From Capsulimonadales bacterium (GTDB taxonomy: Bacteria > Armatimonadota > Armatimonadia > Armatimonadales > Armatimonadaceae): 20,154 bases of DNA. A program made the translations under genes and the position numbers. This document shows, in pieces, positions 4,297-7,918 of this stretch (the stretch's first letter is position 1; each line of letters starts with the position of its first letter). A model generated the notes under the pieces. It was given only the letters and a program-made list of their open reading frames with translations. It ran no database searches and was not told the DNA's origin. The stretch lies in contig JANRLW010000008.1 of NCBI GenBank assembly GCA_033762295.1, positions 1 through 20,154 on the forward strand, given 5' to 3'.

Positions 4297-5505
4297 GTGC
4301 GGGTGATCGATCCGATAACTCTGCCCTACTCCTCCGAAACCGCCCGAACCTGGGCCGATGTCTCTCCCGACGCCCTGCGGAACAATGCCCGCCTCCTGCA
4401 ACCACATATCGGACCGACCGGAGAACTGATGGCGGTCGTGAAGGCCAACGCTTACGGGCATGGCTCGGAGCCGGTCGCCCGCTTCTGTTCCGAGGCCGGG
4501 ATTCGGCGACTGGCGGTAGCGACGGTCGCCGAAGCGACGGAACTGCGCCGCCAATTCCCTGCCGTCGAGATCCATCTGCTGGCGCCGTTCCTGCTCGAAG
4601 AGGCGGAGGACCTGGTACGAAACGACATCGTCCCGTTCGTCTCCTCCCTGGCACAGACGAACGCTCTGATCGCCGAGGCGCGTTCCCAACAACGACAGGG
4701 ACGGGTTTTCGTCTGCCTTGACACCGGTATGGGCCGGGAAGGAGGCGATTCCGAGGAGGCATCGGCCATTTTCGGCCGGACGCTCGACCAGCCGGAGGTC
4801 CGTCCCATCGGGATCGCCACCCATTTCGCGAGCGCGGACGAAGCGGAAGGGACGACGGTCACCCGGGCGCAGATCGACGCCTTCTTCGCGTTCCTCCGTC
4901 GTCCGGAGGTCCGTTCCAGGTCTCTCGCCCGACCGGACGGAGGCAAACTCCGGCTTTCGCTGTCGAACTCCCCGGCGACCCTGCTCCACCCGCTCCCACC
5001 GCTCCCGGAGGGCGTCGGCGGTTACCTTTTCCGTGCCGGTCTCGCCCTGTACGGTATCGAACCCTGCCGGGGCGCGTTTACCCGCCTGCCCGGACTGCGA
5101 CCGGTTCTGGAATGGAAAGCCCGGGTGACGCTCGTTCGCGATTTGCCGACCGGTGCGACGGTCGGCTACGGACGCACCTTTACGATCCTCCGTCCGTCGC
5201 AGGTCGCCACCGTCGCCGCCGGGTACGCCGACGGACTGCCGCGCCGACTGTCGAACACCGGCGTCGTGCTGATCGACGGGCAGCGTTTTCCCATCATCGG
5301 GCGGGTCTCGATGGACCAGTGTCAGGTCGATGTGACCGATTCCCGCCGGCCGATCCGCCCCGGCGACGTGGCTACCCTGATTGGAAGCGACGGGGACGAA
5401 ATCGTCTCCGTGCTGGACGTTGCCGAAACCGTCGACGCCACCCCGCACGAATTGACCACCGGACTTTCCGCGCGGGTCGTCCGACGCTATCCCAGTTCGG
5501 CGTGA
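4297..5505 (+). CDS. alr: Alanine racemase
   Basis: PLP lysine motif AVVKANAYGHG, plus DTGMGREG, THFASAD, VGYG, GYADG and GRVSMDQ. Confidence 0.97.
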   Translation: MRVIDPITLPYSSETARTWADVSPDALRNNARLLQPHIGPTGELMAVVKANAYGHGSEPVARFCSEAGIRRLAVATVAEATELRRQFPAVEIHLLAPFLLEEAEDLVRNDIVPFVSSLAQTNALIAEARSQQRQGRVFVCLDTGMGREGGDSEEASAIFGRTLDQPEVRPIGIATHFASADEAEGTTVTRAQIDAFFAFLRRPEVRSRSLARPDGGKLRLSLSNSPATLLHPLPPLPEGVGGYLFRAGLALYGIEPCRGAFTRLPGLRPVLEWKARVTLVRDLPTGATVGYGRTFTILRPSQVATVAAGYADGLPRRLSNTGVVLIDGQRFPIIGRVSMDQCQVDVTDSRRPIRPGDVATLIGSDGDEIVSVLDVAETVDATPHELTTGLSARVVRRYPSSA

Positions 5506-6611
5506 AGTCGGCGGAGCAGTGCCGCCGTCGCCTCCCACCCCAGGCACCCATCGGTGACGGAGACGCCGTACCGAAGGTCGCCGGACCTTCCGGGAATCAG
5601 TGCTTGCTTGCCCGCGAAGAGGTGACTTTCCAGCATCAGGCCCACCACGGAACGGCGTCCGGCGCGACGCGAGGCGACCACCGATTCGGCGACCTCGACC
5701 TGCTTCTCCGGGTCGTAACCGGAGTTGCCATGGCTGCAATCGACCAGAATGTTCGGGGCAACCCCGATCGCCTCCATCTCGGACTCGATCGATTCCAGAC
5801 AATGCGCCTGGTAGTTCGGCCCGGAGACCTTTCCCCCCCGAAGAATGACCAGCGTCTGCCGGTTCCCACGGGTGCGGACGATCGTACAGCGGCCCTCGCT
5901 ATCGGGTCCCAGGTAACTGTGGGGTTCTCCGGCCGAGACCAGGGCATCCAGAGCGATCCGCGTGCCGCCGTCCGTTCCGTTTTTGAATCCGACGGCCACC
6001 GGCAGTCCGCTCGCCAGCGCGCGATGCGGCTGGGATTCCGTCGTACGCGCCCCGATCGCTGCGAAACTGAGAAAATCGGTCAGATAGTCCGGCACGTAGA
6101 GATCCAGCACCTCGGTCGCGACCGGCAGTCCGAGCGCCGTCAGTTCCCGAAGAAGCCGACGCGCCTGCCGCAGTCCTTCCGCCATATCGAACGATCCGTC
6201 CATCTGCGGATCGTTGATCAGTCCGCGCCAACCGACGGTGGTGCGCGGCTTCTCGAAATAGGCCCGCATGACGAACAAAAGCCGCCCCGGACACTCCTTC
6301 TGCAACGCCGCCAGTCGGCGCGCATAGTCCAGGGCGGCTTCGGGATCGTGGATCGAACAGTGGCCGACGATCACCAGCAGACGCGGGTCCTGACGGTTGA
6401 GGACGCGCCGTAGGTCGCATCGCGCCTTCAGAACCGTTTCGGCCAGGGGCCGGGTCAGCGGTATTTCCGCCTGTAACTCCGCCGGCGGGGGCAGCGGGGT
6501 TCGACGGGCGACCGGCGGTTCGATCTCCCCCACTTTCCCCATCAGCAGGGGGAGCAGGTCGGCGGACTCGATTTCGTCGGCGTTGACTTCATCCTTCAGT
6601 GCGGCGGACAT
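5487..6611 (-). CDS. 3-deoxy-7-phosphoheptulonate (DAHP) synthase, class I-alpha (AroF/G/H-like)
   Basis: Motifs GHCSIHD, RAYFEKPRTTVGW, IGARTTESQ, GFKNGTDG, VDCSHGNS and YGVSVTDGC. SD GAAGGGA precedes ATG 6611. Confidence 0.96.
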   Translation of the reverse strand: MSAALKDEVNADEIESADLLPLLMGKVGEIEPPVARRTPLPPPAELQAEIPLTRPLAETVLKARCDLRRVLNRQDPRLLVIVGHCSIHDPEAALDYARRLAALQKECPGRLLFVMRAYFEKPRTTVGWRGLINDPQMDGSFDMAEGLRQARRLLRELTALGLPVATEVLDLYVPDYLTDFLSFAAIGARTTESQPHRALASGLPVAVGFKNGTDGGTRIALDALVSAGEPHSYLGPDSEGRCTIVRTRGNRQTLVILRGGKVSGPNYQAHCLESIESEMEAIGVAPNILVDCSHGNSGYDPEKQVEVAESVVASRRAGRRSVVGLMLESHLFAGKQALIPGRSGDLRYGVSVTDGCLGWEATAALLRRLHAELG

Positions 6612-6627
6612 AGGACGTTCCCTTCGG

Positions 6628-6647
6628 TTATCGACACGGGTCGATAA
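6628..6647 (-). other. Perfect 8-bp hairpin between the attenuator terminator and the DAHP synthase RBS
   Basis: TTATCGAC-4 nt-GTCGATAA. Confidence 0.6.
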
Positions 6648-6650
6648 TGC

Positions 6651-6682
6651 AAAACGACCTGCTCCTTGGAGGAGCAGGTCGT
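6651..6682 (-). terminator. Attenuator-type intrinsic terminator upstream of DAHP synthase
   Basis: Transcript ACGACCUGCUCC-UCCAA-GGAGCAGGUCGU is a perfect 12-bp stem followed by UUU (4 U counting the stem base). It lies about 40 nt before the start codon. Confidence 0.75.
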
Positions 6683-6710
6683 CGGATCATTGATTGGCTT
6701 TACGTTGCTG

Positions 6711-6893
6711 TCAGGCGATGATTCCGGCTCTCTGCTCCTGGTGCGGATAAAAGTAAAAATAAAAAAAGGCACGCCACCACCGGCAGACACGGGCAAACCC
6801 GACACCGGCCGAGGAGGAGCAAAACGAGAGGCGGCCCCCGCAAAGCGGGTTCCGTGAAAGGCCGTTATTCACTGTCGCAGCAAGGTTGGCCAT
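6711..6893 (-). CDS. Putative attenuator leader peptide (60 aa) with a Trp/Phe/Tyr codon block
   Basis: MANLAATVNNGLSRNPLCGGRLSFCSSSAGVGFARVCR-WWRAFFYFYFY-PHQEQRAGIIA. Nine of 11 consecutive codons (6747-6779) are aromatic, and it lies directly upstream of the first shikimate-pathway gene on the same strand. There is no clear SD, so the start is uncertain. Confidence 0.75.
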   Translation of the reverse strand: MANLAATVNNGLSRNPLCGGRLSFCSSSAGVGFARVCRWWRAFFYFYFYPHQEQRAGIIA

Positions 6894-6927
6894 GATTGCT
6901 GTGAGACGCAAAACGCCCCACAACGTC

Positions 6928-6936
6928 AATATACCA
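6928..6936 (-). promoter_or_regulatory. Extended -10 promoter for the leader/DAHP synthase transcript
   Basis: Minus strand TG-G-TATATT, about 35 nt upstream of the leader ATG. The -35 is weak. Confidence 0.55.
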
Positions 6937-7021
6937 CAGGCCCCGGATTTTCGAGCGTTCCGGTCCCTGATCCGAGCGCAGTTTTTTTCACCGTCGCTGG
7001 CGAGTGAAGCAGGCAGACGCT

Positions 7022-7918
7022 ATGATGGAGCGGATGGACGATACGCTCGACCTCGAGGAAATCCGGGGCTTTTTCGAAATCGCCGGCTTGCAACCGCCGC
7101 TTCGTCCGCCGGTACCTTTCGAACCGGAACGGCCCCCGCCCGTCCCCCCTTCGCCTCCGGAAACCGAAGCCCCCCCGGCGACGCCCCCCGCACCGAGCGC
7201 GGTCCGGCGCAGATCGGAAGCCAGGCCGGAAGAACGATACGACGTACGCATTCGGGAGTTATCGGAGGATGAACGCCCGAGAGAGCGCCTGATCCGTATC
7301 GGACCGGAAGCCCTTACCACCGCCGAGCTGCTGGCGATTCTGATACGCACCGGAACGGAAAAACGGTCGGCGGTCGGAGTCGCCGACCAGTTACTGACCG
7401 ACCACGGCGGTCTGCGCGGCGTGGCGCGACTCTCGGTGGACGAACTCTCCCGCGTTGCCGGAATCGGACCGGCGAAGGCCGCCCAGATCAAGGCGGCGAT
7501 CGAGTTCGGACGCCGGCTGGTCGCCGCCAGTCCGGAGGAGCGCACCAAAATCGGCAGTCCGCGCGACGTTTACAACCTTCTGGGTCCGACATTGCGCGAT
7601 GAACCCCGTGAGCATGTGATCGCCCTGCTCATGGATACCAAAGGCGGGGTGCTTCGACAGTCGACCATCTCCATCGGCGATCTTTCCTCGTCCATCGTTC
7701 ATCCGCGCGAGGTGTTTCGTGAGGCGATCCGCTGTTCGGCAGCGTCGCTGATTCTGGTGCACAACCACCCGTCCGGTGACCCGACGCCGTCCCCGGAGGA
7801 CATCGCGATCACCCATCGGTTGAACGAGGCGGGCGATCTGATCGGGATCGAACTGCTCGATCACATAATCATCGGCGATCACCGGTGGACCTCGCTTCGG
7901 GAAAAGGGACACCTCTGA
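7022..7918 (+). CDS. radC: RadC family (UPF0758) JAB/MPN-domain protein with a Pro-rich N-terminal extension
   Basis: Motifs ERPRERL, ELLAILIRTG, GIGPAKA, VHPREVF, HNHPSGDPTPSPED and LLDHIIIG. The start is uncertain (7004-7034). Confidence 0.95.
   Translation: MMERMDDTLDLEEIRGFFEIAGLQPPLRPPVPFEPERPPPVPPSPPETEAPPATPPAPSAVRRRSEARPEERYDVRIRELSEDERPRERLIRIGPEALTTAELLAILIRTGTEKRSAVGVADQLLTDHGGLRGVARLSVDELSRVAGIGPAKAAQIKAAIEFGRRLVAASPEERTKIGSPRDVYNLLGPTLRDEPREHVIALLMDTKGGVLRQSTISIGDLSSSIVHPREVFREAIRCSAASLILVHNHPSGDPTPSPEDIAITHRLNEAGDLIGIELLDHIIIGDHRWTSLREKGHL

Follow-up and report, generated by a model that had tools for sequence, protein, structure and literature searches.

In Escherichia coli, the entry step of aromatic amino acid biosynthesis is governed by three isozymes and two repressors. 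Attenuation by leader peptides is commonly explained by a four-segment model, in which the leader RNA can form 1:2, 2:3, and 3:4 pairings, the last being an intrinsic terminator, and a ribosome at the leader stop codon hinders the 2:3 pairing. Leaders of this kind can be multivalent, as with the E. coli ilvGMEDA leader, which carries isoleucine, leucine, and valine codons, and the thr leader, which carries threonine and isoleucine codons. Here, we describe a candidate attenuator upstream of a class I-alpha DAHP synthase gene in a 20,154-nt stretch of DNA from a Capsulimonadales bacterium of the phylum Armatimonadota (contig JANRLW010000008.1, positions 1 to 20,154 of the forward strand; hereafter, the window), where a single small open reading frame (sORF) brings together codons for tryptophan (Trp), phenylalanine (Phe), and tyrosine (Tyr). 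The original prediction, made from the letters of this stretch, held that one leader peptide senses all three amino acids, and it took classical leaders to sense one amino acid each. The multivalent ilvGMEDA and thr leaders are textbook cases to the contrary, and the OR logic itself is therefore familiar.

The closest described system is the aroR-aroF leader-peptide attenuator of Corynebacterium glutamicum (Neshat et al. 2014), whose leader contains Phe-Tyr-Phe codons and which, in the accessible portion of the source, is described as answering to Phe limitation, with Tyr availability having no effect (PMC11802643). The same portion names E. coli trpL and pheL as attenuators (PMC11802643). [quoted passage not shown] Within a literature search for which subscription journals were mostly outside scope, aroR was the only DAHP synthase leader that we found described, and no multivalent leader for aromatic amino acids was found. 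The attenuators listed in one study are database predictions before tyrA operons only and include no DAHP synthase leader (PMC1173090), motifs in the 5′ untranslated regions (UTRs) of Shewanella aroF and aroH are listed without a leader peptide (PMC2659441), and no leader was found for Phe or Tyr genes in Actinobacteria (PMC1262725). Likewise, no DAHP synthase leader is described in PMC2965389 or PMC8079986.

A mixed aromatic codon block upstream of DAHP synthase

Judging from sequence anatomy, conservation, and alternative folds, the leader ORF at 6711-6893 is very probably a real, conserved ribosome-mediated transcription attenuator of the class I-alpha DAHP synthase gene (Table 1). It encodes the 60-residue peptide MANLAATVNNGLSRNPLCGGRLSFCSSSAGVGFARVCRWWRAFFYFYFYPHQEQRAGIIA, with its stop codon 99 nt and its aromatic block 135 nt upstream of the DAHP synthase start. 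In agreement with the original prediction of a small aromatic ORF directly before this gene, direct reading of the block (TGG TGG CGT GCC TTT TTT TAT TTT TAC TTT TAT, 6779-6747) gives two Trp, four Phe, and three Tyr codons, and no other 11-codon window of the genome is as rich. When all six frames of the genome (5,163,139 bases, 62.3% G+C) are scanned, WWRAFFYFYFY alone has nine aromatic residues among 8,541,943 stop-free 11-codon windows, while eight are found in 12 windows and seven in 68. The block is far beyond chance. The codons are also mostly TTT and TAT, as had been noted: TTT is used for all four Phe residues and TAT for two of the three Tyr residues, whereas both are minority codons genome-wide (27% of Phe and 36% of Tyr codons, counted in 1,360 long ORFs rather than curated genes).

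Table 1. Features of the leader region and of related loci in the same genome. Positions refer to the window unless a contig is named.
Feature	Position	Strand	Basis
Leader ORF, 60 codons and TGA stop	6711..6893	minus	ATG 6893-6891 to TGA 6713-6711; ORF table and direct reading; homologous in-frame aromatic sORFs at 15 loci
Regulatory codon block WWRAFFYFYFY	6747..6779	minus	Codons 38-48 of the leader ORF; direct reading
Extended -10 promoter element TGGTATATT	6928..6936	minus	Direct reading; kept in relatives
9-bp hairpin GUGGGGCGU/GCGUCUCAC, predicted 5′ end of the leader RNA	6901..6921	minus	Minimum free energy (MFE) fold of 6921-6640
Segment 1, UGCUCCU, within the leader ORF	6815..6821	minus	MFE fold of the full leader; 6821-6815 pairs with 6739-6733
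Segment 2, AGGAGCAG, antiterminator 5′ strand, tail of the leader ORF	6732..6739	minus	Constrained folds; 19-26 nt before the stop codon
Segment 3, terminator 5′ arm GACGACCUGCUCCU, core CUGCUCCU at 6677-6670	6670..6683	minus	Folds; core able to pair with either of segments 2 and 4
Segment 4, terminator 3′ arm AGGAGCAGGUCGUU (6666-6653) and U tract UUUU (6654-6651)	6651..6666	minus	14-bp hairpin
8-bp hairpin UUAUCGACCCGUGUCGAUAA, past the terminator and ahead of the DAHP synthase ribosome-binding region	6626..6645	minus	MFE fold
Class I-alpha DAHP synthase, 374 aa	5487..6611	minus	NCBIfam TIGR00034 (aroFGH), E 1e-127; NF009395 above cut-off
trp leader sORF MRNASVGLGRWWWRGNLSPSPRPARVSG, 28 codons, three tandem TGG (WWW)	contig C33, 3714-3628	minus	Precedes trpE (anthranilate synthase component I), ATG 3530
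Class I-beta DAHP synthase, 340 aa, N-terminal extra domain	contig C90, 52057-53076	plus	NF006421, E 1e-140

Conservation of the leader within the family

Of 41 genomes from the family and its order, 22 carry the DAHP synthase gene, including that of the window; leaving this genome aside, it is present in 20/24 genomes of the family and 1/16 of the sister family. These genomes provide 23 loci, of which 21 are usable after L011 (only 213 nt of upstream sequence) and L023 (a C-terminal fragment) are set aside. An in-frame aromatic sORF is observed at 15 of the 21 usable loci, spanning eight of the nine genera of the family: the window locus, four loci each in genera g7 and g2, two in g4, and one each in g10, g11, g8, and g3. 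In genus g6, the spacer upstream of DAHP synthase is only ~110 nt long and has no leader (L003, L006, L008, L009, and L010). The original prediction had suggested searching upstream of DAHP synthase orthologs for sORFs rich in W, F, and Y, and had named as its refutation a mere T-rich tract that is not conserved in frame. The search finds such sORFs, with Trp, Phe, and Tyr all kept in frame. The last 30 codons of each of the 15 leaders include at least one Trp, at least three Phe, and at least two Tyr codons, as in MAHTPNGYWYFSFYFFPIRDGAVV, MINSSAKFYFYYFWFPQTGQAFAE, and ..GRWFGGFFYFFWFYYFYAPTPVQGAPARIR, compared with genome-wide frequencies of 1.0% for W, 3.9% for F, and 2.0% for Y, and the sORFs end 76-179 nt before DAHP synthase (with gene starts as chosen in the analysis).

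This in-frame conservation makes it very unlikely that the T-rich tract and its hairpins constitute a protein- or ligand-binding RNA, such as a riboswitch or a T-box-like or TRAP-like element, in which the open frame is incidental. At the window locus, each of the three frames of the tract yields a peptide rich in Phe or Leu, and an open frame is therefore of little weight there by itself. In the relatives, however, the aromatic frame begins with an ATG soon after a conserved -10 element and stops 7-14 codons beyond the last aromatic codon, and TGG, TAT/TAC, and TTT/TTC alternate in frame between flanks whose nucleotide sequence is not conserved. Furthermore, an Rfam cmscan of 6400-7200 at E-values up to 10 returns only one chance-level snoRNA match, with the Trp_leader, Phe_leader, riboswitch, and T-box models unmatched, and the whole window has no match at gathering scores. 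A transfer RNA (tRNA) scan of the window also found none.

What is conserved is the codons rather than the peptide. The four leaders of genus g7 have a block that is either invariant or changed only by Tyr/Phe swaps (three aromatic-to-aromatic changes and no aromatic-to-other change), while pairwise codon differences in the flanks comprise 37 non-synonymous versus 19 synonymous, as would be expected if the codons, but not the peptide, were important. That the sORF encodes a small aromatic or hydrophobic peptide that is functional in its own right is an explanation to which we give hardly any credence. The ORF is indeed conserved, and some leader peptides act in trans, such as peTrpL of Sinorhizobium meliloti (PMC7298713), but among the relatives it is the block composition alone that is kept, with leader length ranging from 24 to ~60 aa and the sequence outside the block varying freely. 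The sORF is, moreover, always linked to a terminator and a DAHP synthase gene.

A covarying terminator hairpin and a predicted competing antiterminator

At each of the 15 leader-bearing loci, a strong G+C-rich hairpin with a T run behind it separates the sORF from the gene. At the window locus, this hairpin is GACGACCUGCUCCU-CCA-AGGAGCAGGUCGUU (6683-6653), with 14 bp and a folding energy of -24.9 kcal/mol. When the 15 loci are aligned with MAFFT, 90% of the cells in the terminator helix are paired, and 7 of the 14 pairs change on both sides. The covariation score of the helix was reached by none of 500 shuffles, and sliding the partner strand by 1-3 columns leaves only 33-61% of cells paired. 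The arms are CUGCUCC/GGAGCAG at the window locus versus a family consensus of CYGCCCGG/CCGGGCRG. As the neighboring radC gene is divergent, no gene ends between the leader and DAHP synthase, and a terminator at this position has no other evident purpose.

Both arms of the terminator have counterparts within the leader ORF. The core of the 3′ arm (AGGAGCAG, segment 4, 6666-6659) recurs at 6739-6732, directly past the aromatic block, and the core of the 5′ arm (UGCUCCU) recurs at 6821-6815, giving four segments with possible pairings 1:2, 2:3, and 3:4. In the fold of the untranslated leader (6921-6640), 1:2 and 3:4 form, the former with 7 bp (6821-6815 with 6739-6733). Stalling was modeled by setting the ribosomal A site on a given codon, treating the next 15 nt downstream as occluded, at a stage before segment 4 is transcribed. 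For a stall at codons 6779-6755, the MFE structure is the 2:3 antiterminator (6739-6732 with 6677-6670) over an inner hairpin (-22.6 to -23.1 kcal/mol); once the ribosome is placed at 6749 or beyond, it occludes segment 2 and the antiterminator no longer forms. The fold model thus allows two Trp, three Phe, and two Tyr codons as productive stall sites.

Similar alternative structures are predicted in the relatives. When the MFE fold is computed for a ribosome placed in the block, before the 3′ arm is made, 7-14 bases of the 5′ arm pair with the last 3-35 nt of the ORF at 14 of the 15 loci, and at the fifteenth (L017), the pairing also extends past the stop codon. In most relatives, 4-20 nt separate the antiterminator strand from the stop codon downstream of it, a position that a terminating ribosome would cover in the model. 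Segment 2 of the window differs from that of the relatives in a way that matches its own terminator arms (AGGAGCAG versus CCGGG..). The antiterminator strand is out of register across genera in the MAFFT alignment, and pair counts were made for the terminator alone. The co-occurrence of an in-frame block, a terminator, and a competing antiterminator at each of the 15 leader loci supports leader-peptide attenuation of DAHP synthase, as first proposed for the window.

It is improbable, in our estimation, that the sORF works by way of translation or Rho instead of an intrinsic terminator, for example if stalling uncoupled transcription from translation, or exposed or hid the DAHP synthase ribosome-binding site via the 6645-6626 hairpin. 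Such a mechanism would be in keeping with the short U tract, with the position of this second hairpin immediately before the ribosome-binding region, and with the term "translational regulatory leader peptide" applied to aroR in PMC7356990. Against it stands the 14-bp hairpin with its T run, which covaries and is present at all 15 leader-bearing loci, and in the usual Rho model, stalling would reduce expression rather than increase it.

Promoter, start codon, and a model of attenuation

An extended -10 element upstream of the leader was part of the original prediction, and we find TGGTATATT at 6936-6928 to be conserved in relatives: 11 of the 15 leader-bearing loci have a TGnTAnAnT element at a distance of 17-40 nt upstream of the leader ATG, and at a further locus the hexamer is present but TG is missing. 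The element is absent from the listing of a consensus promoter scan because the scan demands a -35 hexamer, and none is present here. From the spacing, the transcript is predicted to start at ~6921, 28 nt before the leader ATG. With regard to the start codon, the prediction had weighed ATG 6893 against an upstream TTG; the latter (6929) falls within the -10 box, and ATG 6893 is therefore the likely start. In several genera, the position of the -10 element implies a 5′ UTR of only a few bases. At four loci (L004, L007, L017, and L020), the extended -10 is 17-18 nt before the leader ATG, and their leader messenger RNAs (mRNAs) would be leaderless or nearly so, which may explain the missing Shine-Dalgarno sequence before those sORFs.

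Based on this anatomy, we infer that the leader is translated, that ribosomes stall in the block, and that transcription terminates in the following manner. Transcription would start at the extended -10 promoter, and the 60-codon leader would be translated while RNA polymerase proceeds. When aromatic aminoacyl-tRNAs are plentiful, the ribosome would reach the stop codon (6713-6711), on or beside segment 2 and inside the antiterminator fold, such that the 3:4 terminator (6683-6653 and the U tract) would form and transcription would end before DAHP synthase. A stall within 6779-6755 on a codon for Trp, Phe, or Tyr would instead leave segment 2 (6739-6732) free to pair with segment 3 (6677-6670) once the latter is made, and with 2:3 paired, no terminator would form and the DAHP synthase gene would be transcribed. 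In the case of no translation, segment 1 (6821-6815) would hold segment 2, and the terminator would form.

Several observations weigh against this model. At the window locus, no Shine-Dalgarno sequence is seen ahead of ATG 6893, the U tract is short (UUUU followed by GCAUUAU), and the 6683-6653 hairpin is not listed as terminator-like by a consensus scan. The energy of the 2:3 duplex is ordinary for G+C-rich sequence, with 42 of 200 shuffles being as good at the window locus and 3 to 152 of 200 at the individual loci, and the best complement of the terminator 5′ arm lies in the ORF tail at only 11 of the 15 loci, representing 5 of 8 genera. MFE folds will in any case pair any G+C-rich arm with something. 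Pairing of segment 1 with segment 2 on either side of a stalled ribosome is possible in principle, and a ribosome stalled on the last two aromatic codons (6752 and 6749) would, in the model, cover segment 2. Six of the 21 usable loci have no leader, namely the five g6 genomes and the single gene-bearing genome of the sister family.

The length of the leader is a further difficulty, and the original prediction regarded 60 aa as unusual. This description does not hold among the relatives, where leaders of 50-60 codons (by the start choices of the analysis) occur in five of the eight leader-bearing genera. In these five genera, the best partner of segment 2 is within the ORF, 15-51 nt before the block, while in the three short-leader genera, the best partner is weaker and lies upstream of the ORF. 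A long leader places segment 1 inside the translated frame, which offers a reason for its length.

Which aromatic amino acids may be sensed

Because a single block combines three kinds of codons, running short of just one of the amino acids should suffice to relieve termination, which would make the leader multivalent and OR-like. We would put the chances that all three aromatic amino acids are sensed at about even. A substantial competing possibility, to which we assign roughly one chance in three, is that a genuine attenuator responds to no more than one or two of them, for example Phe, or Phe and Tyr, with the other codons being passengers or serving to keep the tract unstructured. The precedent of C. 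glutamicum speaks for it: aroR, despite its Phe-Tyr-Phe codons, is reported in PMC11802643 to respond to Phe limitation with no effect of Tyr, which shows that mixed codons are no guarantee of mixed sensing and counts against a three-way response here. Phe codons are also the most common in the block (4/9), and Trp is sensed separately at trpE in the same genome, as discussed below. On the other hand, at least one TGG is kept in 15/15 leaders even though Trp accounts for only 1.0% of codons; two Trp, three Phe, and two Tyr codons sit where a stall would free segment 2; and in genus g7, aromatic-to-aromatic swaps are tolerated while no aromatic codon is lost from the block.

Gene context and other aromatic-pathway genes

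The DAHP synthase gene is apparently monocistronic. It is convergent with an alanine racemase gene (4297-5505, plus strand), and the 3′ ends of the two genes overlap by 19 bp (5487-5505), therefore leaving no room for a terminator between them. On the other side, radC is divergent from the leader promoter with a gap of only ~70 bp. The encoded RadC-family protein (7004-7918, plus strand, 304 aa) has a Pro-rich N-terminal extension of ~90 aa, after which matches to the family domain start at residue 91-93.

In another part of the genome, trpE has a leader of its own ahead of it, with TTGACA-17 nt-TATCCT upstream and a strong, 13-bp G+C-rich terminator downstream. The organism therefore uses the same device at another locus too, with separate Trp sensing for the Trp branch. 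PF00793 matches three proteins in the genome: the leader-controlled DAHP synthase, a 276-aa protein on contig C38, which is taken to be KDO8P synthase from its length alone, and the class I-beta DAHP synthase on contig C90. The presence of the latter means that the leader controls one of two entry isozymes, so the leader-controlled enzyme is not the sole entry step that the original prediction implied. A class II DAHP synthase was not found in the genome, which is 94% complete, and no leader was seen by eye in the 400 nt upstream of pheA or of the class I-beta DAHP synthase gene. Three further aromatic-rich small frames (C10:15921, C33:375, and C84:44147) were considered as additional aro leaders and rejected, as they are not upstream of aromatic-pathway genes. 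The frame near C84 44147 (minus strand) reads KLYKYFYWYFF, with 8 of 11 residues aromatic, and lies in an A+T-rich spacer upstream of genes for a 158-aa protein and secA.

Distribution across phyla and the DAHP synthase tree

We next consider the occurrence of such leaders beyond the family. In a sample of 301 genomes of the phylum, including that of the window, 71 have a DAHP synthase gene at E-values up to 1e-60. Five genomes of this sample lack photosystem reaction-centre genes, so the phylum is not a photosynthetic cyanobacterial group. Families outside the order of the window show no mixed aromatic sORF at any of 37 loci (17 + 20 examined); one of these loci, L136, has a Phe-only run within a longer frame, after which no terminator was found. 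A wider sample took the best 80 from among 602 confirmed class I-alpha loci across all phyla, which were screened automatically for an sORF with at least four aromatic residues of at least two kinds in seven, followed by a hairpin with a T run. Ten of these best 80 loci were flagged, one of which is doubtful (gammaproteobacterium L075). The nine firmer loci (L061, L085, L103, L076, L078, L094, L051, L030, and L099) have mixed Trp/Phe/Tyr sORFs and terminators, and belong to Devosia (MINAATFYWYFSYPLPAEAIARVS), two Bradyrhizobium (MITVATSYFWYFSYDSSLAAGGSRSI), a betaproteobacterial metagenome-assembled genome (MAG; MNAFATYFYWYFFPGLTAVEGMRARD), Massilia, Rugamonas, a Pseudomonas, a Pseudomonadales MAG, and a myxobacterial MAG. 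A candidate sORF with only a weak hairpin is found at a Salinicola locus (L096). Genus g7 of the family shares a near-identical core, (T)GGTAYTTTAGC (WYFS), with Devosia and Bradyrhizobium, and a nearly identical YWYFS codon core recurs in unrelated phyla.

A FastTree phylogeny of DAHP synthase was inferred with 117 rows after two rows with fewer than 250 aligned residues were dropped, and L075 was labeled as leaderless; the local supports given here are weak evidence. The genes of the family and that of the sister family form one clade (support 97), with the leaderless g6 sequences nested inside. This nesting among leader-bearing relatives points to secondary loss of the leader in g6. The sister of the family clade is a pair consisting of Pseudomonas and Salinicola (support 84), one with a leader by the criteria of the analysis and the other with a candidate, while the leader-bearing alphaproteobacterial, betaproteobacterial, and myxobacterial genes fall in one other clade (support 98). 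In total, the leader label requires eight changes on the tree, a pattern that fits leaders persisting with particular gene lineages and possibly moving along with them.

The tree also contains two placements that hint at transfer of DAHP synthase genes between phyla. The DAHP synthase of "cyanobacterium PCC 7702" is found inside the group of family f5, which belongs to the phylum of the window (L026, L106-L117), and Nostocales genes form the sister of two genes from family f7.

Taken together, the mixed aromatic leader is seemingly widespread and apparently unannotated, and the device would seem to be frequent both among uncultured lineages and among well-known Proteobacteria, including Bradyrhizobium, Devosia, and Massilia. 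A broader proposal, which we put forward only tentatively and rate a little short of an even chance, is that these loci represent a single multivalent "aro leader" class that is old, widespread, and essentially undescribed, that reads Trp, Phe, and Tyr together to gate entry into the shikimate pathway, and that travels with particular class I-alpha lineages across phyla.

Comparison with known leaders

To a specialist, an attenuator at this position would hardly be a surprise, yet it is cleanly testable. If all three end products are indeed read, one RNA-level device would integrate them without a regulatory protein, which would be a compact alternative to the combination of isozymes and repressors in E. 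coli and could easily be tested with reporters. Such sORFs deserve annotation as leaders rather than as hypothetical small proteins. For metabolic engineering, they would be the first elements to delete in order to increase flux through the shikimate pathway, as was done with aroR according to PMC7356990.

The most similar system is aroR of C. glutamicum, in which a leader peptide gene with aromatic codons is likewise found immediately upstream of a DAHP synthase gene. In aroR, stalling at the aromatic codons raises expression, and we propose the same action for the leader at 6711-6893. Compared by description, the two differ in that aroR has Phe-Tyr-Phe without Trp and responds only to Phe, whereas the leader described here has nine aromatic codons of three kinds and comes from another phylum.

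In its architecture, the leader resembles trpL and pheL of E. coli, sharing a promoter, a short ORF with regulatory codons, segments 2-4 with a putative segment 1, an intrinsic terminator, and the placement of the stop codon. However, trpL and pheL each read one amino acid with 14-15 codons and serve a terminal branch, whereas here, three amino acids are represented in 60 codons ahead of the common entry step. The regulatory codons also lie between segments 1 and 2 rather than within segment 1. The trpE leader of the same genome is the same device, combining an sORF with a strong terminator, but it has Trp codons only, is 28 codons long, and serves the Trp branch. With the ilvGMEDA and thr leaders, the leader shares codons for several amino acids and OR-like relief of termination, although the amino acids and pathways differ. 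The proposed mechanism is that of trpL, pheL, and aroR, and the logic is that of ilvL; what is new is the mixture of Trp, Phe, and Tyr codons and its occurrence in this lineage.

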